A DNA stretch of 58,485 bases, the filler included, from Limisphaerales bacterium (GTDB lineage Bacteria > Verrucomicrobiota > Verrucomicrobiia > Limisphaerales > SIBE01): the NCBI GenBank assembly GCA_044225505.1. It is 3 parts of 2 records of this genome, joined end to end, with 100 filler letters (N's around TTAATTAATTAA, not from the genome) between each part and the next. Parts side by side here need not be neighbours in the genome. Positions count along the whole stretch, not along the records: positions 30,764 to 58,485 come from JBGAIN010000009.1; 2 more parts are not named here. One strand, 5' to 3'. The notes beneath the pieces were generated by a model that made no database searches, was not told where the DNA came from, and saw only the letters and a program-made list of their open reading frames with translations. How positions within the stretch are numbered: the first letter of the stretch is position 1; each line of letters opens with the position of its first letter. Shown piece by piece: positions 3,163-58,485 of the stretch. Made by a program: the position numbers and the translations under genes.

Positions 3163-3792
3163 CTAGAGCGAATCGCTGAATCCTTTCAGAATGATTGACA
3201 CCGAAACGGCCCCGGGGTCCGGATGTCCAATGACCCGATCTCCCAGATTGCGAGCGCGACCAAAGCGCGCCTTCATCGTTCGGGTGCCATCTGCGCCTTG
3301 GGCGGCAGCTTGGGCGGCTCGTGCGAGGAGAGGTTGGAGACCGCTGGAAAGGTCTTTGGCCGACAAGACATCCAAGGCTGGCAGAAAGGCGTCCATCATT
3401 GTCTTATCGCCGACGTTGGCGCGACTTTGCTTATGCAACGATTGGATGCCAGCGATCAGAGCATCGACCCACTGTTCGGCCGTGAATTCGGTTCTGCCCT
3501 CGCCGACCTCACTCAAGCCCATGAAGAACGCCCCGAGAAGTGGTCCGGTTGAACCCCCGTCGCAGGACATGATGGCCCAGGCCAAATTAGAAAAGAACTC
3601 TTTCAAATCCTGACCGGAAGGCTCTGCGGCCGCCTTCGCGACGGCTTCCATCGTCCGCAACATGGTAGTGCCATGATCGCCGTCGCCCACCGCCGCATCG
3701 AGGCGCGAGAGATTTTCATGATTTTGTCGAATCTGCTCCACGGCTCCATGGAGCATCCGACTAACTTCTGCGAATCCGATCGTTCCGGTCAT
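3163..3792 (-). CDS. dhaL: Dihydroxyacetone/ketose kinase DAK2 (DhaL) subunit
   Basis: LDAAVGDGDHG, GGSTGPL, GDKTMMDA, ARFGRA and GHPDPGA motifs. Confidence 0.9.
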   Translation of the reverse strand: MTGTIGFAEVSRMLHGAVEQIRQNHENLSRLDAAVGDGDHGTTMLRTMEAVAKAAAEPSGQDLKEFFSNLAWAIMSCDGGSTGPLLGAFFMGLSEVGEGRTEFTAEQWVDALIAGIQSLHKQSRANVGDKTMMDAFLPALDVLSAKDLSSGLQPLLARAAQAAAQGADGTRTMKARFGRARNLGDRVIGHPDPGAVSVSIILKGFSDSL

Positions 3793-3863: not shown

Positions 3864-4842
3864 TTACTTAGTCAGGGCGGGCGTGGTGCAAGGGGCGTTC
3901 CAATAACCGAGCAGTTCGTCATCCATCTTGGCGACGAACATTTGGAATCCAGCCATTTCCTGCACGGTTAGCCATTCNNNNNNNGCCTTGGGCGTCGAGG
4001 ACTTTCTTGCATCCGCGAAGCACGATGTACATCTCCATCAAGGTTGTGGCGCCGGCGCCATTGATAACCACCATGACCTTGTCGCCGGACTTGGCGTTCA
4101 CGGCCGCCAATAGACGCGTGAGCATCAATTCGGCGGTCTGATCCGCGGTGAGAAGCTTGCATGGCCCAGTGCCTGCCTCCCCATGTTGGCCCATCCCGAT
4201 TTCCATTTCGTCGTCGGCGAGTTCGAAGATGGCTTGACCGCTGGCCGGATGAGTCGCCGTCTTCATCGCGACGGCCAGAGTTGCCATCCCATCGTTGAAG
4301 CGCTGAGCGATCGCGTAGATTTCGTCCAGGCTCTTGCCCGCCTCCGCGGCGGCGCCTGCGATCTTATAGAGCGGAATGCAACCGACCAACCCACGGCGAT
4401 GCTCGGCCGGCGCGTTGGCACCCGGCGCGATATCTTCGTGAGTGAGGAGCATCTTGTGCCGGATGCCCTCTTTGGCGGCCATTCCCTGAGCCATGTTGGC
4501 GCTGAGCACATCGCCCGCGTGATTCAACACAATGAAGAGCGTGCCCGCGGGACGTTTGGAAAGGCGGAGGGCTTCCAGAACCTTCGGCGGACCTGGTGCG
4601 GCAAAGATGTCCCCGACGACGCTGTAATCGAGCATTCCCTGTCCCACGAATCCACTTAGGGCCGGTTCGTGTCCGGCGCCGCCCAAGGTGACCAGCGCCA
4701 CTTTGTCGGACGCCTTCGGAGTGGCGCGGCAGACGATCTTTTCCGACTGGATGCGGATGGTCGCTGGGTTGGCGATGGCAAAACCCTCGAGTAACTCACG
4801 GGCCAAGTTCTTGGGGTCGTTGATAAATTTCTTCATGCTCAT
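3864..4842 (-). CDS. dhaK: Dihydroxyacetone/ketose kinase DAK1 (DhaK) subunit, spanning a 7-N gap
   Basis: MKKFINDP, GGAGHEP, RRGLVG and EIGMGQHGEAG motifs. After the N gap the expected C-terminus EWLTVQEMAGFQMFVAKMDDELLGYWNAPCTTPALTK* continues in another frame to TAA at 3864. Confidence 0.88.
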
Positions 4843-11972: not shown

Positions 11973-12072
11973 NNNNNNNNNNNNNNNNNNNNNNNNNNNN
12001 NNNNNNNNNNNNNNNNTTAATTAATTAANNNNNNNNNNNNNNNNNNNNNNNNNNNNNNNNNNNNNNNNNNNN
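11973..12072. other. Artificial contig linker (N44-TTAATTAATTAA-N44)
   Basis: N runs flanking a six-frame stop 12-mer at 12017-12028. Confidence 0.97.
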
Positions 12073-30663: not shown

Positions 30664-30763
30664 NNNNNNNNNNNNNNNNNNNNNNNNNNNNNNNNNNNNN
30701 NNNNNNNTTAATTAATTAANNNNNNNNNNNNNNNNNNNNNNNNNNNNNNNNNNNNNNNNNNNN
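30664..30763. other. Artificial contig linker
   Basis: N runs flanking TTAATTAATTAA at 30708-30719. Confidence 0.97.
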
Positions 30764-49895: not shown

Positions 49896-51577
49896 TTGGC
49901 CGCTCCTCCTGCGGCGGCTGCCTGATAGGTGCGCCAGGAACCGGTCAGGTTTCGGACCTTGAACCCGCGCTGCACCAGTAGGCGACAGGCGAAATAGGAG
50001 CGCTGGCCGGATTGACAGTGGACGACGATCTCTCGGTCCCGCGGCAACTCGTCAGACCGGGCTCGCAGCTCATCGAGAGGAATATGAACCGAATTCGGTA
50101 TCGCCCCTTTCACACGCTCATCGAGCCGACGGACGTCCAGAACCAGCGACCCGGCCGTTTGGGCGCGCGAAAGCTCGTCCCATTGAATGAGTTGGACGTC
50201 ACCGGCAAGCACGTTTTGCCCAGCCATTCCTGCCAGGTTAACTGGATCCTTGGCCGAGCCGTAAGGAGGAGCATACGCCAGCTCGAGCTCGGCCAGATCG
50301 TGCACGGTCATGGCGCCTTTTAGGGCTGTCGCCAGGACGTCGATCCGCTTGTCCACACCATCACGACCGATGGCTTGAGCGCCAAGCAGGCGGCCGCTGT
50401 GAGGCGCGAACAAAACTTTGAGCGCGATTGGCTCCGCCCCCGGAAAAGACCCCGCGTGCGAATGAGGGTGAAGGTGGAGCGCCTGGTAGGGCACGCCGGC
50501 CTTGCGCAGGGCTTTCTCACTTGCCCCTGTGCATCCCGCTGAAAGATTGAAAAGGCGCAAGATGGCTGTGCCCCAGGTCCCACGGTACACGGAGTTGCGG
50601 CCGTAGATGTTATCCGCCGCAATGCGTCCCTGCCGATTGGCCGGCCCGGCCAGCGGGATGACGACTTGCTGACCGGTGACAGCATCCCGGACCTCAATCG
50701 CATCCCCCACGGCCCAAATATGCGGATCACTCGTCTGCAGCCGTTCGTTGACTCGAATCCCCCCCAGCTTGCCAATCTCGAGCCCTGCGCTCTTGGCCAG
50801 ATCCACGTTTGGCCTGACACCCAACCCCAGTATCACCGTGTCGGCAGGCAAGCGACGACCGCTCTTGAGGACGACCACGGACGCGCGAGCCGTTTCCCCG
50901 GGACTAGGCGCTTCAAATCCTGCCACAGAATCGTTCAGATGAAGTTCGACTCCGTTGGCTTCCAACTCCAAGTGTAACCAAGCCGCCATTTCCGGATCGA
51001 GCGGTGCCATTACCTGATCCGCCGCTTCGACCAGAGTAACGGACAGCCCGCCACGGCGAACCAGTTGCTCGGCCATTTCCAGGCCAATATAGCCGCCTCC
51101 AACCACCACAGCTCGGCAGCCAGGGCAGTCCGTAACCCAGTTCATGATCTGCTGCACATCAGGAATATTGCGGACCGTAAAGTGCCCAGGACGATCAATT
51201 CCTGGAATCCGAGGTAGTAGCGGCACCGCACCGGTCGACAGCACAAGATCGTCGAAGGCTTCTGTATACTCGTGACCAGTCGTCAATTCGCGAACGCGAA
51301 CCTCACCCGCGACACGGTCGATGGCGAAGACCTCCGATCGCACTCTCACGTCCAAGTTAAACCGAGACCGGAGGGTTTGCGGCGTTTGCAGCAGCAGTGC
51401 GTCCGGTTCTTCGATCTCTCCACCGACAAAGTAGGGGAGTCCGCAATTCGCAAACGAGACGTGTGGCCCGCGTTCGAACACGATGATTTCGCATCGTTCG
51501 CAAAGACGGCGCGCCCGGGCGGCCGCACTGGCCCCTCCCGCAACACCGCCAACCACAATGAGACGTCGTGAATCCAT
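49892..51577 (-). CDS. CoA-disulfide reductase-rhodanese fusion (NADH-dependent persulfide reductase-like)
   Basis: GGVAGGASAAARARR, SFANCGLPY, GGGYIGLEMAE, YAPPYGSAKDPVN; C-terminal rhodanese HCQSGQRS. Confidence 0.92.
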   Translation of the reverse strand: MDSRRLIVVGGVAGGASAAARARRLCERCEIIVFERGPHVSFANCGLPYFVGGEIEEPDALLLQTPQTLRSRFNLDVRVRSEVFAIDRVAGEVRVRELTTGHEYTEAFDDLVLSTGAVPLLPRIPGIDRPGHFTVRNIPDVQQIMNWVTDCPGCRAVVVGGGYIGLEMAEQLVRRGGLSVTLVEAADQVMAPLDPEMAAWLHLELEANGVELHLNDSVAGFEAPSPGETARASVVVLKSGRRLPADTVILGLGVRPNVDLAKSAGLEIGKLGGIRVNERLQTSDPHIWAVGDAIEVRDAVTGQQVVIPLAGPANRQGRIAADNIYGRNSVYRGTWGTAILRLFNLSAGCTGASEKALRKAGVPYQALHLHPHSHAGSFPGAEPIALKVLFAPHSGRLLGAQAIGRDGVDKRIDVLATALKGAMTVHDLAELELAYAPPYGSAKDPVNLAGMAGQNVLAGDVQLIQWDELSRAQTAGSLVLDVRRLDERVKGAIPNSVHIPLDELRARSDELPRDREIVVHCQSGQRSYFACRLLVQRGFKVRNLTGSWRTYQAAAAGGAAK

Positions 51578-51589
51578 CTTAACGAGACT

Positions 51590-51615
51590 GAGCCGCTCAC
51601 TCAGCAAAAGTTACA
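51590..51615 (-). promoter_or_regulatory. ECF-type promoter TGTAAC-N15-GGCTC
   Basis: TGTAACTTTTGCTGAGTGAGCGGCTC, 12 nt before ATG 51577. Confidence 0.65.
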
Positions 51616-51740
51616 GGTGAATCGTTAATCCCATTCCAACCCGACTTGACATTCCTGCCGCTGCACAGTTAGTTCCTCCGCGTTCTCATGAGGCCTGGGG
51701 TGTTTAAGAAACGGGCTGCGCTCTCTCACTCGTCGCGCTG

Positions 51741-52100
51741 TTGTTGATGGTGGGGGCCCACTGGCACGTTCTGCAATCCGTCGCCTGGATTCGCCTGCTG
51801 GCTTCGTACTCTCTCACGGATACCTTCGCTACCGCTGTCGTAAAGACCTTTGACGGCAAGCATCCATGCGCCATGTGCCTGAAAATACGCGATGGCCGTC
51901 AGCAGCAGGAAAACGAGCAGAAGGAATTCCCCCTGGCGGAACGGGGGCGAGGCCCAGATCTGTTTTGGGAGTGCCATTGCTCGTTCACTCCCTGGGTTTC
52001 AACGGTTGCCTGGCATGCCGTCCCGTTTTCCCCTTCTCGATATTCCAACTTCATTAGCTCTCCTCCAAAGCCGCCTCCTCGCGCTGGTGCCCATGTCTGA
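51741..52100 (+). CDS. Small Cys/His-motif membrane protein (DUF2946-like), 5' end possibly frameshifted
   Basis: GAHWHVLQSVAW...KTFDGKHPCAMC...PPKPPPR; the upstream ATG 51688 is out of frame across a CT repeat. Confidence 0.6.
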   Translation: MLMVGAHWHVLQSVAWIRLLASYSLTDTFATAVVKTFDGKHPCAMCLKIRDGRQQQENEQKEFPLAERGRGPDLFWECHCSFTPWVSTVAWHAVPFSPSRYSNFISSPPKPPPRAGAHV

Positions 52101-52254
52101 ATCTCCGCGATTAAGGCGCAAGAGCGCTTTGATTTCTTCATTTGGTGGCTTGAGTGAGCCACTGATAACCATTCTCGACTGAAATTGGAGCTGCTCTCCG
52201 ATGGGACAAATTGCCCCCGGGCAGAGCAGTTAACCTTCATACTTTGACAACCTT

Positions 52255-52767
52255 ATGCTGAAATATTCCCAGTTCTTCATCTTTGCTGCTGCTTTGCTTT
52301 TCGAGTCTTCGCTGACCGTCTCCGGCCCGATCCTGTCCAATGTCCCAATGCAAGGGAGCATGGTCATGCCCATGGTGAAGCACGACGCTGCTGCCGCAGC
52401 GTTGCGGGTGACGGTTGATCCAATCGTTCCTGAACTTGTGCCTCTCCGATCCAGCAATCCAGGGGACAGCTTCATCGCTACGGATCCCTGGTTCGAGTTC
52501 CTGGATCCTGCCGCACAGGGGCTCGCCTTCAGCCGTCGCTACGGATTTGTCATGGATACCATGACCGATCCGCTCCCTCCTGAAACTCATAGCATGATCC
52601 GGAAGCTCTCTAGTTCGCCCGGTCTCGGTATCTACCGTTGTCGAGCTACGAACCCCAAGAGCTGGACCCCGATCTTTGGGACCGATAACTCCTCCGTTTC
52701 CATGGCGTGGGACGGAATCACGCGGTTCTGCTTGATCCCAGCCCGGAGAGGAGCTTTTTCCGAATGA
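52255..52767 (+). CDS. Secreted Met-rich hypothetical protein (possibly truncated)
   Basis: Signal-like N-terminus, PMQGSMVMPMV segment. Confidence 0.5.
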   Translation: MLKYSQFFIFAAALLFESSLTVSGPILSNVPMQGSMVMPMVKHDAAAAALRVTVDPIVPELVPLRSSNPGDSFIATDPWFEFLDPAAQGLAFSRRYGFVMDTMTDPLPPETHSMIRKLSSSPGLGIYRCRATNPKSWTPIFGTDNSSVSMAWDGITRFCLIPARRGAFSE

Positions 52768-52785
52768 AGAGGGTTCCCTAGCCGT

Positions 52786-53289
52786 ATGCACTCTGAGTCT
52801 AGACTCCGCTCCGGGCCACCAAAACCAGAAGCGAAGGCTGCCTTCACTCTGATTGAACTACTGGTGATCGTTGCGGTCATAAGTTTGATTGCAGGGCTGT
52901 TGATGCCAGCCATGCCGAAGGCAACACAGGCGGCCCGCCCGGTTCAGTGCTTGAGTCAGATGCGCCAGATCGGAATGGCGGTGCGGCTCTACGCCAATGA
53001 TAACGAAGACCATGTTCCGCGCAGCCAGCATTCGGCGTTTGCCCACAACCAAATGCCTTGGGGCCGAGCTATCGCCGAATACGTTGGAGCCAAACCGAGC
53101 TCCTGGACGAATCTGCTGAACGGGCTTTACCGATGCCCAAAGGATTTGAGGAAAGAACCCTGGCTCTGGGGTTACGGGCAAAAGTCAAACTACTCCTTTG
53201 CTGACGGACATGCGCAGCTTCGTGAGTTTTCCCAGACGAACCATCCGGAGAGCCAAACCGACCTGTGGAACCCATCGAAGGCTCAATGA
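52786..53289 (+). CDS. Prepilin-type N-terminal protein with internally deleted H-X9-DG domain
   Basis: [29 protein letters not shown], then almost directly SNYSFADGH with the upstream His missing; much shorter than the paralog at 14146. Confidence 0.7.
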   Translation: MHSESRLRSGPPKPEAKAAFTLIELLVIVAVISLIAGLLMPAMPKATQAARPVQCLSQMRQIGMAVRLYANDNEDHVPRSQHSAFAHNQMPWGRAIAEYVGAKPSSWTNLLNGLYRCPKDLRKEPWLWGYGQKSNYSFADGHAQLREFSQTNHPESQTDLWNPSKAQ

Positions 53290-53308
53290 GCTCACGCATC
53301 CTTATCCT

Positions 53309-53581
53309 ATGAAGAACCGGCATGAACTTGGTGATGCGGAGTTGGTCACATACGCCCAACGGGGAGACTTCGGTGCCTTCGACACTCTGGTCACCCGTTA
53401 CGAGAGGCTGATCTTCTCCTATGCCCTCGCAATCAGCACAAGCCCACGCCAGGCAGAGCACTTTACCGAATTAATCTTCCTGAGGGCAATGGACGACCTT
53501 GGACCATTCGACGCCCGGCTCGGTTTTCAAGCTTGGCTCTGGGCCGCTGCGGCGGGGTCGGATGCCAATGGCTTAAGGTGA
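53309..53581 (+). pseudogene. ECF sigma factor fragment (region 2 only)
   Basis: DAELVTYAQRGDFGAFDTLVTRYERLIF...FQAWLW, then stop; no region 4. Confidence 0.75.
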
Positions 53582-53593
53582 GAAAGAACGGTT

Positions 53594-53619
53594 TGTAACT
53601 TTCCTGGCTTTGGTGGCTC
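53594..53619 (+). promoter_or_regulatory. ECF-type promoter TGTAAC-N15-GGCTC
   Basis: TGTAACTTTCCTGGCTTTGGTGGCTC, third copy with identical spacing. Confidence 0.65.
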
Positions 53620-53691
53620 AATAGCCGACGTGAAACTGTTGCACAACGGAATGCTTGCGTGCCCTGCGTTGGCCAGCCACAAGGAGATGCT

Positions 53692-53997
53692 ATGTGGCCT
53701 GCGTTAATACCTATCGGCGTGGGCGGTTTGCTCGGAGCGGCACTGGGATACTTCGGCCAGTGCTCCTCAGGAACATGCCCCTTAACCTCAACCTGGTGGC
53801 GCGGGGCACTCTACGGTGCTGCGTTGGGCGCCATGTTTGGCTTCGGCTCGAATCGGCGTGATTACGCCGAGACCACCGGAAACTCGACCAACGTGCTGCA
53901 CATCGCTCAGTCAGAGTTCGAAGCCGTGGTCCTGAATTCAGACCAGGCCGTCGAAAGGGTCAGGCCCGCAGAATGCAATATAGATGTTGACGCTTGA
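53692..53997 (+). pseudogene. DUF6132-like membrane domain + truncated thioredoxin
   Basis: AAGGAG SD; GYFGQCSSGTCPLTSTWWRGALYG; then the thioredoxin start (HIAQSEFEAVVLNSDQAV) breaks off before the WCxxC motif. Confidence 0.7.
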
Positions 53998-54159
53998 GGC
54001 GAGGCAGCGGCAGGTTCTTGGAATGGCGTGGAAACCGGGGGTGCAGTATCCTCAGCGGACGATAGAATGCGTTGCCGGTGGACGGGAGCGGCAACAGAAA
54101 CTTGAGAAGGGCTTGTGATTACAGGCCCTGGCCATGAATCGCCGCTTCCTGGATGATGG

Positions 54160-54418
54160 GCGCAGCAGACTGGCAACTCTGTCTGCTTCCGGATGAGTGT
54201 CACCCATAGTCGTTTCTAGGTGCGAGTGACCGAGAACAACCTGGTGCCAGCAGCTTGAGGGTTTGGCTTCCGTGGTCAGGAGGGGTTTGGGGTGAGGACT
54301 CTGTAGGAAGCGTGTTGGTGGCGAGCACACCGGACATAGGATTTTTTTCGGTGTTGGGCGCGGTATGGTGAAGAGAGCAAGCTCCATCTAATAAACGGAT
54401 TGCGAGGCCCTGTTTCAT
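54160..54418 (-). pseudogene. Collapsed IntI-like tyrosine recombinase (integron integrase remnant)
   Basis: The N-terminus can be rebuilt across frameshifts as MKQGLAIRLLD...HTAPNTEK|SYVR(W)...RFLQ. It joins the C-terminal box II QVVLGHSHLETTMG-D-THPEADRVASLL (54243-54163), where the catalytic Tyr position reads GAC. Divergent from the cassette array. Confidence 0.75.
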
Positions 54419-54485
54419 TCTAGATACGCGAACGGACGGTCAGGGTATAAGAAAAACGGGTCGATGGAGTCGGCTTTCTTGGAAG

Positions 54486-54518
54486 TTGACATTAGGCCTG
54501 GTAACTGAGTAATGTCAA
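54486..54518. promoter_or_regulatory. Symmetric bidirectional sigma70-type promoter (candidate Pc/Pint)
   Basis: TTGACATTA-N15-TAATGTCAA; each strand reads TTGACA-N18-TAATGT. Confidence 0.6.
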
Positions 54519-54575
54519 TAACATGAGGAGATTGAATGCTTCGGCCGTGAATTTACATATCCGAACCATTGGTTT

Positions 54576-54594
54576 GCATACCCAATAGTTCGCT
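54576..54594 (+). mobile_element. Candidate attI site, crossover G|TT at 54588
   Basis: GCATAC-CCAATA-GTTCGCT; GTTCGCT is the exact reverse complement of R'' (AGCGAAC) of the first attC, and no attC hairpin precedes it. Confidence 0.75.
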
Positions 54595-54600
54595 CAAAGA

Positions 54601-54628
54601 TCGACATTCCTGGCATTTTCGGTAGATT
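54601..54628 (+). promoter_or_regulatory. Cassette-internal promoter of the TA module (likely leaderless mRNA)
   Basis: TCGACA-N16-TAGATT ending 6 nt before ATG 54635; no SD. Confidence 0.5.
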
Positions 54629-54634
54629 CTCCCC

Positions 54635-54829
54635 ATGAGTGCGCCAACGCAGTATTTGACAGACGCCAACGGCGCTAAAGTTGCGGCGGTCATCCCCATC
54701 GACGAATATGAGGAATTGATGGAGGACCTCAACGATTTGGCCGTCGTCGCCGAGCGCCGCGACGAGCCGCGGGTTTCCTTCGAGGAGGTAAAACGACGTT
54801 TGAAGGAAGATGGCTGCCTACCGAGTTGA
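54635..54829 (+). CDS. Type II antitoxin (RelB-like), cassette 1
   Basis: QYLTDANGAKVAAVIPIDEYEELMEDLNDLAVVAERRDEP..SFEEVKRRL; overlaps the toxin start. Confidence 0.8.
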   Translation: MSAPTQYLTDANGAKVAAVIPIDEYEELMEDLNDLAVVAERRDEPRVSFEEVKRRLKEDGCLPS

Positions 54830-55069
54830 GTTCCGAGGCTCTGCTGATCGAGAGTTGTCGCGCCTCAATCGGCAGGTGCTCCAGAGCTGGTTGAGGCGAT
54901 CGATGCACTTGGCGAGCAACCCAGGCCGGTCGGGGTGCGGAAGCTGGCCGGAGCAGAGCACACTTACCGGATTCGAGTTGGAGACTATCGGGTTATTTAC
55001 ACGATCGACGAGGCGGGCAAGATTGTAACCATTGAGCGTGTCCGCCACCGGAGCGACGCATACCGATGA
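54810..55069 (+). pseudogene. relE: RelE/ParE-family toxin with a 1-nt frameshift near 54886, cassette 1
   Basis: MAAYRVEFRGSADRELSRLNRQVLQ|LVEAIDALGEQPRPVGVRKLAGAEHTYRIRVGDYRVIYTIDEAGKIVTIERVRHRSDAYR*. Confidence 0.85.
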
Positions 55070-55079
55070 ATACCCAAAG

Positions 55080-55168
55080 AGCGAACCACCGACTGCAATG
55101 AACAGCGGGACAGCCAAACCGTGGAGTGGAGCCCATTGGGTCGCTGTCATTGAGTCGGACCGTTCGGC
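55080..55168 (+). mobile_element. attC site 1 (89 bp)
   Basis: R'' AGCGAAC; arm CCGACT(G)CAATGA(A)CAGCG pairs with CGCTGTCATTGAGTCGG; R' GTTCGGC. Confidence 0.92.
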
Positions 55169-55188
55169 GGTGACCATGCGATGCATCT

Positions 55189-55803
55189 ATGAATGAGAAA
55201 TGCAATGTTCTCGTGGTAATGGCTATTCTGACGGGCTTTCTCGCCGGTTGTGGCACAGCCACGCATTCGAAATCGGTGTCGGCGTCGACGTGCGGGACCG
55301 CCCAAGTGAGGGAGTTAGCAATAGGTATGGCGGATGTCGATGCTCAAGGCATTTTGTTCCTTGATCTAGATCGTAATCGGAGTCTCAAAGCGCCCGTGAG
55401 AGTGCGTTTCTCCCAACTGGGGGGACTGGAGATCACTCCCGCATTATCGCAGTGGCTGCGGGGGAACGGGATCGATCTGTTGGTGCAGTTGGTGCCCGAG
55501 GTCAAGGTGGCTGGATCGGCAACGACTTTTCCTGGGGCGCATTTGAGGGGCGTTAATCTGCGGGGGGTAACGGTTCTGGAGGACAAGATTCGGAGGAGAT
55601 CCAAGGCAGATTCGCTGCAAAAGAGTTGGCCGAACCCGGATCCCGAATGCGATGTCTCGAGCAGCCGTTTGGTTGGTCTAGGGGTCGAGGTGTACCGCGT
55701 CCTGTTGCGAACGCAAGAGGGGCGCGTGTTTGCACTTGAGGAAGAGGAACGCCTTCCTGACGGTGTTAGGATTCGCTATGAAGAAGTGGCGACGCTTCGG
55801 TGA
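55189..55803 (+). CDS. Hypothetical lipoprotein, cassette 2
   Basis: Lipobox FLAGC after a hydrophobic leader; stop 4 nt before attC2. Confidence 0.7.
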   Translation: MNEKCNVLVVMAILTGFLAGCGTATHSKSVSASTCGTAQVRELAIGMADVDAQGILFLDLDRNRSLKAPVRVRFSQLGGLEITPALSQWLRGNGIDLLVQLVPEVKVAGSATTFPGAHLRGVNLRGVTVLEDKIRRRSKADSLQKSWPNPDPECDVSSSRLVGLGVEVYRVLLRTQEGRVFALEEEERLPDGVRIRYEEVATLR

Positions 55804-55807
55804 GAGT

Positions 55808-55900
55808 GCTGAACAAGCCACTCCAGCGGATGCCGGGAGAACGTTCCGGTTGCAGAGCGGGGCGTCTTTGGCCCGGCACCGCTGAGTTCCGTCGTTACCC
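55808..55900 (+). mobile_element. attC site 2 (93 bp)
   Basis: R'' GCTGAAC; ACTC(C)AGCGG(A)TGCCGGG pairs with CCCGGCACCGCTGAGT; R' GTTACCC. Confidence 0.92.
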
Positions 55901-55907
55901 CTGAATC

Positions 55908-56408
55908 GTGAGCACTTCGGAACTTTGGAATACTCTACTGCTCATCCTAACGAGGATCGTGCTACCGCTCGTCGTGATTTTTGCAATCGGCTCGGGAATT
56001 AGTGGGTGGGTTCTCTTGGCGCGCAAATACCCGGAACGTTCATGTGCGATGGAGGAGACCTTTCCGTCTACCTCAGGCTATTTCGGAGGTTTGATTGCAT
56101 GTTACAGAAGGTCGATTACGGTAAGCACCGGTTCATCTGGCTTGCGCCTTTCTACTACACGTTTACTCAGCCTGTTTCATTCGCCGATCTTTTTGCCTTG
56201 GACAGCCTTGACTTGTTGTTCCGTCGCCGATTTTCTGGGGTTGCGGCGTGGCATAAGGCTGGACATTGCTGGCCGGAAGAGGCCGATTTATTTGTATGGA
56301 TTCCTCTGGAAATACGGGGACGCCCCAGCCCGAATTGTCAATAACTGGCAACAACACCGTCAGAGCGGGGTAACCACCGAGTGCAATGAACGGCGAATCA
56401 AAGCATAA
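55908..56408 (+). CDS. Hypothetical membrane protein, cassette 3
   Basis: N-terminal TM; GW..LARKY, LFHSPIFLPW; the stop lies inside attC3. Confidence 0.7.
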   Translation: MSTSELWNTLLLILTRIVLPLVVIFAIGSGISGWVLLARKYPERSCAMEETFPSTSGYFGGLIACYRRSITVSTGSSGLRLSTTRLLSLFHSPIFLPWTALTCCSVADFLGLRRGIRLDIAGRKRPIYLYGFLWKYGDAPARIVNNWQQHRQSGVTTECNERRIKA

Positions 56409-56459
56409 GCGACAATCTATTAGCAGCTTCGTCGCCGTAATTGACTCGGATTGTTCGGC
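56368..56459 (+). mobile_element. attC site 3 (92 bp)
   Basis: R'' GGGTAAC (exact complement of the preceding GTTACCC); CCGAGT(G)CAATG(A)ACGGCGA pairs with TCGCCGTAATTGACTCGG; R' GTTCGGC. Confidence 0.92.
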
Positions 56460-56460
56460 A

Positions 56461-57048
56461 ATGAGAGGCTCCTTGCGCGCTGTGCGCAAAATCTTTGGGT
56501 CGCTGGTCCTGACTGGTTGGGTGCTAGTCTCCGCCTTTGCTCAGAGTTCGAATTTCCTTTCTTTAACGGTCACCGTCTTGGCCCCTGAGCAAAATGAGAA
56601 GTTCTCGCGGTTAGCGTTTGACCTTTGCAATAGCTCGAGCAAAACACAGGAGTTCGTCATACCCTTGACCAACGTTTTCCCCGGGACTGTTTCGCTGCTT
56701 TTGCCAAACGACGAAGTCCGAGAGTTCGTCCATACCAACTATTGGAATCGGATAATGACCACTTATTGGTTTCGGCCGTCGGTTGTCTTACGGCCTAAAC
56801 AATGCCTCCGTTTCGAGACATCAACCGCGGACTTCATCGATCCCGAAAGGCCGAGCCCCCTCAGACACCCCCGTAAACTCCCCGCGTCCATCGCTCCCGA
56901 TTTTCCTACGCTTGCATCGGAACTTCGCTTGGGATGTTGGCTCAGCTCCCGAGTTGAAATCCAGCGGCAAAAGCATCTGCCGGGAGGCTACGTCACCAAT
57001 GTGGATATTGGGTCAATCGTCTCTCCGCAAATCCGATACGTAAAGTGA
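56461..57048 (+). CDS. Hypothetical secreted protein, cassette 4
   Basis: ATG 1 nt after R'; signal peptide ending SAFA|Q. Confidence 0.7.
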   Translation: MRGSLRAVRKIFGSLVLTGWVLVSAFAQSSNFLSLTVTVLAPEQNEKFSRLAFDLCNSSSKTQEFVIPLTNVFPGTVSLLLPNDEVREFVHTNYWNRIMTTYWFRPSVVLRPKQCLRFETSTADFIDPERPSPLRHPRKLPASIAPDFPTLASELRLGCWLSSRVEIQRQKHLPGGYVTNVDIGSIVSPQIRYVK

Positions 57049-57052
57049 AATG

Positions 57053-57145
57053 GCCGAACCAGCCGATTGCACCGAACCCGGCGAAGACCGTCCGGTTCCA
57101 AATCGATTACCACATCTGCCGGGTCGGTGACCGGCGTTGTTGGTC
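57053..57145 (+). mobile_element. attC site 4 (93 bp)
   Basis: R'' GCCGAAC; GCCGATTGCACCGAACCCGGC pairs with GCCGGGTCGGTGACCGGC; R' GTTGGTC. Confidence 0.92.
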
Positions 57146-57149
57146 GCGT

Positions 57150-57434
57150 ATGAGCACGCCGACTCGATTCTCCTCAACTGGTTGGCGCTGGGCGCTCATC
57201 ACCTCGCAGTTACTGGTGGTGACGTTCTGTGTCATGGACCGCATCTTGATAGCCGAGGCCGGTCATCGGGCTCATTTTGCCACGGCTCCGTCGCTCATCG
57301 TCGGCATCCTGGTTTTCCCGGCACTGCTGTTCCTGCTTTTCGGCAGCCCTTTTCTTGTGAGATTGCTCGGGCCGGTTGCGATTACCGGTTGGTGCGTGGG
57401 CGCTGCGGCGCTCGTATTCTCCCATGGACTATGA
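57150..57434 (+). CDS. Small 3-TM membrane protein, cassette 5
   Basis: ATG 4 nt after R'; three hydrophobic segments. Confidence 0.65.
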   Translation: MSTPTRFSSTGWRWALITSQLLVVTFCVMDRILIAEAGHRAHFATAPSLIVGILVFPALLFLLFGSPFLVRLLGPVAITGWCVGAAALVFSHGL

Positions 57435-57447
57435 ACTCAAAAGGAGC

Positions 57448-57573
57448 GACTAACCAAACGCCGAAAGCGAACTGGCGCAGCCCCGATCCGTGTGATGCCT
57501 TGAGGCAGCTTGGCCGTCGCTTGCCCCTTTGGAGATTCCTCTTCAGCGCCAGTCGCTTGGCTTATTGTTGGCC
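57448..57573 (+). mobile_element. attC site 5 (126 bp, long variable terminal structure)
   Basis: R'' GACTAAC; GCCGAAAGCGAACTGGCGC pairs with GCGCCAGTCGCTTGGC; R' GTTGGCC. Confidence 0.88.
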
Positions 57574-57584
57574 GTAACCGTGTC

Positions 57585-57863
57585 ATGCGCTACCTCGCAG
57601 TCCAGTGGCACCAGAATTGTCCGGACGATCCAATTGCGATATTGTCGGAAATTGACGACGATGGTTGGGAGCAACGAAAAGTGGAAATCTACGCTGATGG
57701 TCGGACCGACTACGCTAACAAGATCGAGCAGACCAGAACGACTGAGCTTGGCCTTTCCCCCATTCCATCGCTAGCTGAGATCGAAGCTGACCCGCAGTTC
57801 GGTCCTCGCGACATTTCGCGAGAAGAGTTTGAGACGTCATGGAAGAGAGCAACAGGATACTAA
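57585..57863 (+). CDS. Acidic DUF6881-like protein, cassette 6
   Basis: MRYLAVQWHQNCPDDP..ILSEIDDDGWEQRKVEIYADG...IPSLAEI...F.PRDISREEFE..W. Confidence 0.75.
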   Translation: MRYLAVQWHQNCPDDPIAILSEIDDDGWEQRKVEIYADGRTDYANKIEQTRTTELGLSPIPSLAEIEADPQFGPRDISREEFETSWKRATGY

Positions 57864-57864
57864 C

Positions 57865-57957
57865 GGCCAACAACGCCATGCACACGAGCTCCGCGATAAC
57901 GACCAGGTTACAAATCGAAAGCCACCGGCGCGGAGTCGGTGATGGCGACCGTTGGGC
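57865..57957 (+). mobile_element. attC site 6 (93 bp)
   Basis: R'' GGCCAAC; CGCCAT(G)CAC(A)CGA(G)CTCCGCG pairs with CGCGGAGTCGGTGATGGCG; R' GTTGGGC. Confidence 0.92.
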
Positions 57958-57980
57958 GGTAACAAGCAGCACCCCGATCT

Positions 57981-58382
57981 ATGCCGCGAACAGATATTGA
58001 GGAATTCGGGCGACTACTGATCAAGCAGGTCAGAGATCAAGCGATCGCGAATTGCGATCGAAGACTGCAAGCCCGTAGGACGGACCCTATTTCGAAGCGC
58101 TGGCAGGCAGCCTTGAGTACCAGGAGCTCAGAAGAGATCCTGAAGGTCGCCATACCGGACATCGTGGATACGGTCATCGCCGAACTGCTCCGAGGCATCG
58201 ACCAGGAGACCCTCCCTTTGGCTTTTACAGCCTCCAACGGAGCCACAGTTGATCTCTCTCGTGATGGGCTAGGTGAACTTTGCGGCTGGTTCATGGGCGA
58301 GTGGCGTTTCAGGCACTCCGACGAGCGGGTGGTGGACGATTTTGCGGACCTCCGAGGCCCTCCAGACGATACCCAAAAATGA
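57981..58382 (+). CDS. Hypothetical helical protein, cassette 7
   Basis: EEFGRLLIKQVRDQAI...IPDIVD...DGLGELCGW; fills the space between attC6 and attC7. Confidence 0.75.
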   Translation: MPRTDIEEFGRLLIKQVRDQAIANCDRRLQARRTDPISKRWQAALSTRSSEEILKVAIPDIVDTVIAELLRGIDQETLPLAFTASNGATVDLSRDGLGELCGWFMGEWRFRHSDERVVDDFADLRGPPDDTQK

Positions 58383-58395
58383 GAACCAACAGAAC

Positions 58396-58485
58396 GCCCA
58401 ACAAGCCAGATGCAGTGAACCCGGCGATAGCGCTCTGGTTGACAATCGAGTGCTAGGCGCGCCGGGTCACTGATCTGGATCGTTA
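58396..58485 (+). mobile_element. attC site 7 (R' cut by window end)
   Basis: R'' GCCCAAC; CCAGAT(G)CAGTGA(A)CCCGGCG pairs with CGCCGGGTCACTGATCTGG; R' GTTA... Confidence 0.92.

Follow-up and report, generated by a model that had tools for sequence, protein, structure and literature searches.

The intI relic and its surroundings

Close to the end of contig C330 of a Limisphaerales bacterium (∼4 kb from it), the minus strand carries both ends of an integron integrase gene (intI) in correct order and orientation, divergent from an attI site and from seven attC-bounded cassettes on the plus strand. The locus was analyzed within a window, i.e., the whole stretch of DNA under study (58,485 nt), which joins contig C328 to two parts of C330, its first 18.6 kb and its last 27.7 kb. 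The window is not one continuous DNA (joins at 11973-12072 and 30664-30763), and its end is the end of C330. Since the assembly is a bin (9.0 Mb in 342 contigs, completeness 95%, contamination 4.7%), "same genome" here means "same bin." The features of the locus are given below, where P0060 is a metagenome IntI of 337 aa, and R1 is a covariance model of attC built from the seven window sites.

53941 to 54171, plus strand: truncated MITE-like repeat retaining its initial ∼225 of ∼315 bp and adjoining, at the cut on its right, the 3′ end of the relic
54160 to 54418, minus strand: whole intI relic, 259 nt replacing a gene of ∼1 kb
54160 to 54243, minus strand: C-terminal 28 codons of IntI with the box II region, QVVLGHSHLETTMGDTHPEADRVASLLR; 23 of 28 residues identical to P0060
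54244 to 54261, minus strand: 18-nt junction, reading PSSCWH, which matches neither side of the gap of ∼237 codons
54262 to 54418, minus strand: N-terminal 52 codons of IntI; 35 of 52 residues identical to residues 1 to 52 of P0060
54419 to 54556, plus strand: spacer from the intI start to attI; together with the first 17 codons 75% identical to the C273 platform
54557 to 54594, plus strand: attI core, ..CCGAACC..N..AATAGTTCGC.., crossover at 54587/54588
54588 to 55172, plus strand: cassette 1, with RelB-like antitoxin (54635-54829), frameshifted ParE (54810-55069), and attC (55074-55172)
55803 to 55904, plus strand: attC 2, R1 76.3 bits, hairpin fold
56362 to 56463, plus strand: attC 3, R1 66.1 bits
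57048 to 57149, plus strand: attC 4, R1 86.6 bits
57439 to 57574, plus strand: attC 5, long form, R1 44 bits
57861 to 57961, plus strand: attC 6, R1 81.9 bits
58391 to 58485, plus strand: attC 7, cut by the contig end, R1 90.3 bits

The relic retained ∼80 of ∼337 codons, matching residues 1 to 52 and 290 to 317 of P0060. The absent ∼237 codons include the catalytic core and the additional domain specific to IntI (the insertion around the I2 helix). At the junction left behind by the gap, relatives read IEAFLT after TTEAK on the one side and AFVRDL before QVVLGH on the other. The N-terminal part had to be read in three frame pieces. Of the minus-strand frames, one gives MKQGLAIRLLDGACSLHHTAPNTEK, starting with the ATG at 54418, another gives SYVRCARHQ, and the third gives TRFLQSPHPKPLLTTEAKPSSCWHQVVLGHSHLETTMGDTHPEADRVASLLR. 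The first frame break falls at a run of seven T on the plus strand (T7/A7, 54342-54348), and the second lies near 54315. The C-terminal piece is in frame with the third N-terminal piece. In the C-terminal piece, the codon of the catalytic Tyr is GAC, coding for Asp (54201-54199). With ∼237 codons gone, Tyr changed to Asp, and two frameshifts present, the catalytic set of a working enzyme is incomplete. The peptide stretches, the GAC codon at the Tyr position, and the extent of the remnant (54160-54418) that had been reported in the first-pass annotation were all correct when read in the minus-strand frames. Its rebuilt Trp behind SYVR proved to be superfluous, as P0060 and P0021 natively read SYVRC at this place.

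The last codons of the relic are replaced by the truncated MITE-like repeat, with up to ∼13 nt shared between the two. A DNA search of the genome revealed 13 full copies of this ∼315-bp family (e.g., C252:19413-19725 and C82:54013-54327), a short form of ∼220 bp lacking the middle, and fragments. The family is short, non-coding, present in many copies, and bounded by terminal inverted repeats of ∼25 bp, all of which are features of a MITE; the copy in the window is without its right-hand ∼95 bp. Many repeat copies were found near contig ends, and the copy on C132 sits between two attC matches of the same orientation. The genes to the left of the relic (52786-53997) appear truncated. Within this region are a 167-aa DUF1559/prepilin-type fragment and a frame holding only sigma-70 region 2, and a DUF6132/thioredoxin-like frame left of the relic is cut by the MITE-like repeat. 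The ∼2-kb stretch at 52786-53997 looks like decayed DNA.

The relic begins at ∼170 bp from attI, the distance that had been claimed previously (ATG at 54418, crossover at 54587/54588). The spacer in between contains TTGACA (54486-54491), the strong Shine-Dalgarno motif GAGGAG (54525-54530), and a mini-ORF of 4 codons (54536-54550) just before attI. The latter recalls the short leader ORF in the attI of class 1 integrons. The 75%-identical stretch comprises window positions 54367-54538 (spacer and first 17 codons), and its counterpart belongs to a second decayed platform on C273. The C273 spacer (C273:14817-14960) has the same layout, except that its mini-ORF is 8 codons long; the intact platform on C60 is without the ∼130-nt spacer. 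A consensus promoter scan called no site in the relic or the spacer and a single one past attI, at 54601-54628. A TTGACA...TAATGT pair had been noticed by eye, but fell outside the criteria of the scan.

The attI core emerged from an alignment of the sequences that lie upstream of the intact intI, the window relic, and the relics on C60, C311, C162, and C273. The core shared by the intact intI and 3 to 4 other relics reads ..CGAACC.., ∼25 nt, ..A(A/G)T(A/G)GTT(R)GCGC... The crossover was fixed by the homology of cassette 1 (71% identity) in two genomes of two other genera, G007 and G008. There, homology begins exactly at 54588 (GTTCGCTC) and is preceded by an attC. As in an integron platform, attI adjoins and diverges from intI, and the cassettes are inserted at the GTT crossover. 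In cassette 1 of the window, ParE is frameshifted and the RelB-like antitoxin is whole, while the copies in G007 and G008 have a whole ParE of 86 aa. Besides these two, the cassette products comprise a DUF6881 protein and several products without a Pfam family.

The seven attC sites form imperfect hairpins at cassette spacing, and their alignment has 19 consensus pairs, 12 of which show compensatory changes. R1 scored 44 to 90 bits on its own seven sites, and elsewhere in the 58-kb window it matched only the last site read on its reverse strand and, at 10 bits, one further place (E 1.2). A strict search for RYYYAAC...GTTRRRY found no attC, because every site deviates by about one letter from the textbook boxes. 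A repeat search yielded short pairs only. The homology described below, the attI alignment, and the seven hairpins bear out the proposal of the first-pass annotation that an IntI relic, divergent from attI, heads a real attC array.

Similarity to IntI and independent assemblies

For comparisons across frame breaks, we wrote a frameshift-aware aligner and used 400 random segments of the same genome as the null. Against P0060, the N-terminal part of the relic scored 163 (null, 32.2 ± 4.7) and the C-terminal part scored 108 (null, 25.5 ± 4.5); neither score was reached by any of the 400 segments. The C-terminal piece was also identical to the intact IntI encoded on C60 at 20 of 27 positions (74% over 27 aa), and tblastn of the C60 IntI against the 9-Mb genome retrieved it at E 4.3e-5 (76% over 25 aa). 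At the DNA level, the relic and the C60 intI shared 56 nt at 77% identity. Other tyrosine recombinases of the genome (Xer-like paralogues) matched the C-terminal piece with 8 to 12 identities over 17 to 23 aa.

Additionally, a profile was built from the best 120 database relatives of the intact C60 IntI. In a six-frame search of the window, it recovered the C-terminal piece at an i-E of 1.1e-7, and its other row was an unrelated site (E 1.7). Searched frame by frame, the profile recovered the C-terminal piece alone and no N-terminal piece. In combination with the frameshift aligner, it matched codons 1 to 26 with a score of 37.6 (null, 18.9 ± 3.0; reached by 1 of 2,000 random segments), and a continuation beyond these codons was unsupported. 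The continuation past codon 26 became clear only with the closer relative P0060. Because the match of the N-terminal piece to the C60 IntI was weak (31% over 42 aa, E 1.3 in a 900-base search), the assignment of this part is founded on closer metagenome relatives and on our own aligner. A further metagenome relative, P0045, was identical to the N-terminal piece at 15 of 21 positions. RHQHASY was also considered as a form of the RHAFATH motif, but at 19.7 the score lay within the null range, and this reading was dropped.

In Pfam and NCBIfam scans, the three ORF pieces matched no recombinase family; the lone row (PLAC, E 0.018) was under the cut-off. PF00589 and PF13495, which are on record for the relatives, were absent from the relic in the Pfam scan. 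A six-frame search of the genome with TIGR02249 at E ≤ 10 gave 19 matches, none of them on C330, and an Rfam search over 51500-58485 returned nothing relevant (one row, E 0.71). Hence, the expectation that standard profiles would miss the relic was confirmed for Pfam, NCBIfam, and TIGR02249, and since the relic is invisible to all three, the array would be called an integrase-less attC cluster (CALIN). The locus has at least two close attC sites and no detectable intI, where the attC sites were called by R1, a model trained on these same sites. Both parts of the relic resemble IntI rather than other tyrosine recombinases, and judged by its sequence the relic descends from an IntI. It demonstrates that the identity of a relic far below the screening threshold is still provable.

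For comparison, we examined contigs over 53700-54900 that had been assembled independently in four public runs, one from each of four studies. Contigs of run X1, which is possibly the source sample, covered 54188-54586 with zero differences. Run X6, which is from a different study and represents a related strain, covered 54163-54346, i.e., across the deletion junction, as well as 54329-54491, and run X2 covered 54236-54316 and 54318-54900. Since contigs of X1 and X6 cover it, the internal deletion is no assembly artefact. The X6 contigs differed in length exactly at the two frame-break sites: a G was inserted behind 54315 (depth 5.9), and 2 letters were omitted at 54344 (depth 2.8 of 8.7). With one low-depth X6 contig per site, these differences are hints that the deletion is older and the frameshifts are younger. 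The junction between the MITE-like repeat (53941-54171) and the relic was bridged by none of the public contigs listed, which stop at the repeat; loose contig ends at 54165 in all four runs continue like other repeat copies. On the other side of the relic, contigs of X1 and X6 either end at 54586 or begin at 54557, and a variant of the stretch 54439-54586, 93% alike, likewise ends at 54586. Contig ends at this place would be expected if sequences branch at the attI crossover, with neighbours that differ across the community. Among the 20 relatives searched for the orthologous locus, one of the two same-genus genomes being 63% complete, there was neither a copy of the relic DNA nor a locus with an intact intI.

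Integron platforms of the bin and full-length relatives

The bin contains one intact intI and at least four other decayed intI genes, each near attC sites. The intact IntI on C60 scored 267.6 to 268 bits on TIGR02249, above the cut-off of 265; given the 4.7% contamination of the bin, it may come from another strain. Genome-wide, R1 found 35 sites at E ≤ 0.01, including the 7 training sites. Sites lay in the expected place by the intact intI (C60, 71201, 71758, and 72049) and others accompany an N-terminal intI fragment 5 kb upstream on C60, the broken intI of C311, and the relics of C162 and C273. The region C60:64385-72350 comprises two tandem integron platforms. In the first, the N-terminal intI fragment (58% identity to the intact gene over 133 aa) is followed by an attI core and by attC sites at 65573, 67064, and 68778; the second has the intact intI (69282-70256), attI, and attC matches reaching the contig end. 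The relics on C273 and C162 scored weakly against the profile (21 to 35); the N-terminal relic on C162 was recognized by tblastn (E 1e-4) and the relic on C273 by DNA identity. Two tyrosine recombinases of 379 to 381 aa with a long N-terminal extension were observed within C201:46-4466 and C122:45409-46551. They gave partial matches to TIGR02249 (94 and 67 to 74 bits, respectively), and the one on C201 is flanked by attC-model matches at 46-147, 3411-3477, and 4366-4466.

In the first-pass annotation, the recombinase was suggested to be a possible member of a divergent clade, marked by TTMGYxH, which could escape standard profiles. The part concerning the profiles was upheld, for one standard model, by the full-length relatives. 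TIGR02249 was the top NCBIfam family for all 22 relatives tested, 13 of which fell below its cut-off of 265 bits (5 of 14 wider relatives and all 8 nearest ones). The 8 nearest relatives reached 242 to 260 bits (5 to 23 under the cut-off), matching model positions 2 to 313 in a single stretch, and 9 of the 14 wider relatives passed. The relatives are often named "integron integrase" by their source, and many are named "XerD." Given the shortfall of 13 of 22 and the XerD labels, the risk of missing relatives is real for this model.

The box II motif, however, defines no clade. Among the best 120 relatives, it read TTMLYLH in 36, TTMGYLH in 32, TTMRYLH in 11, and TTMNYLH in 8, and the pattern was unmatched in 8. 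The intact C60 paralogue has TTMGYLH, and the nearest relatives of the relic have TTMKYLH or TTMNYLH. As the motif varies among relatives in this way, it marks a broad group. The C-terminal form in class 1 IntI is ..IYTH, in contrast to the TTM(K/N/G/L)YLHPE of the nearest full-length relatives of the relic. Neither could the novelty of a clade be maintained, as 5,781 of 8,000 scored candidates were relatives at E ≤ 1e-20, many already bear the name integron integrase, and the best solved relative of the intact paralogue is the Vibrio IntI4 2A3V (E 8.8e-49). The alignment of the paralogue to 2A3V runs in one stretch over residues 10 to 308, through the KYP..W..FPS insertion region. Together with the TIGR02249 span of the 8 nearest relatives, this indicated that the relatives carry the IntI-specific insertion in the I2 region, a point that had been raised as a check on their identity.

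The genomic surroundings of relatives were studied in 80 metagenome loci, which were pulled with an alignment of the 8 nearest relatives and kept from 564 confirmed ones. R1 gave 23 matches in these loci, 22 of which were on the strand opposite intI. An upstream match was present in 10 of the 45 loci having at least 600 nt upstream; when only relatives of 47% identity or more with this much flank were counted, the figure was 7 of 16, including the sole relative of at least 60% identity with enough flank (L034). Since R1 was trained on the sites of one genome, these counts are lower bounds. The case in which full-length homologs would be unrelated to cassette arrays was not encountered. A search of genome contigs with P0060 retrieved distant relatives only, with at most 39% identity over most of the length.

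Probable decay in place and its alternatives

The relic is very probably what remains, in its original position, of a dead intI gene heading its own cassette array. According to this interpretation, the locus would once have been a complete integron, with an integrase of the same subclade as P0060, and would have decayed stepwise, by the internal deletion first and by the frameshifts later. The relic would be without activity of its own, because the catalytic core and the Tyr are lacking and the frame is broken, and the array would now be an integrase-less cluster. Its cassettes, if mobile at all, would presumably be moved in trans by the intact IntI on C60, which is a candidate for this role because its attI core and attC family are alike.

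Alternatively, the relic might never have worked at this site, if a partial copy comprising attI and the intI ends had arrived already truncated by duplication or rearrangement of another platform. The genome does hold several partial platforms, i.e., the 133-codon N-terminal fragment on C60 and the 75%-identical spacer plus 17 codons on C273, and many pseudo-integrons are attributed to intragenomic duplication in the account of Nemergut et al. (2008, PMC2426708). However, both ends are present and collinear here, for which a single internal deletion is the simplest explanation. Moreover, no paralogue in the genome is as close to the relic as P0060 is (35/52 and 23/28), so the relic is no recent copy of any of them, and even a duplication would still mean descent from a complete intI. 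Although we regard such an arrival as improbable, it is a better candidate than the idea that the short frame has been kept for a use of its own, either as a mini-protein made of the N-terminal helix and the C-terminal tail or as a carrier of promoter or regulatory DNA for the cassettes. The deletion did not shift the C-terminal piece out of frame with the third N-terminal piece, X6 seems to be free of both frame breaks, which would yield one open frame from the ATG, and the spacer with the first 17 codons is 75% conserved with C273. Yet, an in-frame deletion has a one-in-three chance, the X6 reading comes from one low-depth contig per site, and in the window two breaks interrupt the frame and the Tyr has been lost. 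As the catalytic residues outside box II are also gone and no promoter-like site was called inside the relic, a retained function of this kind seems very unlikely.

Least credible of all, and close to negligible, is that the resemblance arose by chance or that the pieces stem from a tyrosine recombinase from outside integrons, such as a phage integrase or Xer. Box II is common to all tyrosine recombinases and the pieces are without a Pfam or NCBIfam match, but none of the 400 random segments reached either score, and the best matches were to IntI (20/27 and 23/28), against the 8 to 12 identities over 17 to 23 aa of Xer-like proteins. In addition, the N-terminal piece matches residues 1 to 52 of the same IntI proteins, and the attI and attC array are in the canonical place.

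The reading as an intI gene that died in place fits into a known framework. Loss of intI is one of the four origins of CALIN proposed by Cury et al. (2016, NAR, PMC4889954), and their screen, for which more than 50% profile coverage was required, counted recognizable pseudogenes near 15 of 279 CALIN. In the sense in which that paper uses the term, the locus resembles a CALIN in being an attC cluster without a functional integrase nearby; with ∼80 of ∼337 codons and no IntI-specific region, the relic would fall among the 95% described there as being without a recognizable pseudogene. In the survey of Nemergut et al. (2008, BMC Genomics, PMC2426708), nearly one third of intI genes were inactivated by a stop codon, a frameshift, or a major deletion, more than one-fifth of the integron-bearing lineages had more than one intI, and decay was frequent. 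Compared to the pseudo-integrons counted in that survey, which kept the additional domain, the relic is much more decayed, and its bin contains at least five decayed copies, this one included. In comparison to intact IntI (TIGR02249, 2A3V), both of its ends match, and the catalytic core and the Tyr are missing. The first cassette, with its RelB-like antitoxin and ParE, is reminiscent of sedentary chromosomal integrons with toxin-antitoxin cassettes, as portrayed in a 2024 report (Sci Adv, PMC13108822); relative to that portrayal, the toxin is frameshifted here, and the array is cut by the contig end, so that seven attC sites are its visible part.

The relic is a further example of the known decay of intI and constitutes neither a new mechanism nor a new kind of element. 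Its value lies in being a clean worked example of intI loss in place as an origin of CALIN, from a remnant that is too short for the published pseudogene screen. The nearest full-length integrases lie 5 to 23 bits under the TIGR02249 cut-off and are often named XerD, so that surveys relying on this cut-off may undercount integrons in the lineage. On a broader and distinctly tentative note, which we hold to be possible but doubtful, the relic and the intact paralogue might belong to a large environmental IntI subclade lying just under the TIGR02249 cut-off, the complete integrons of this lineage might be routinely under-called, and, with sub-threshold relics such as this one added, a sizeable share of the CALIN without a recognizable pseudogene might be integrons that decayed in place. 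If this were true, the one intact platform of the bin and its decayed ones, at least five in number, would represent a natural series of integron decay.
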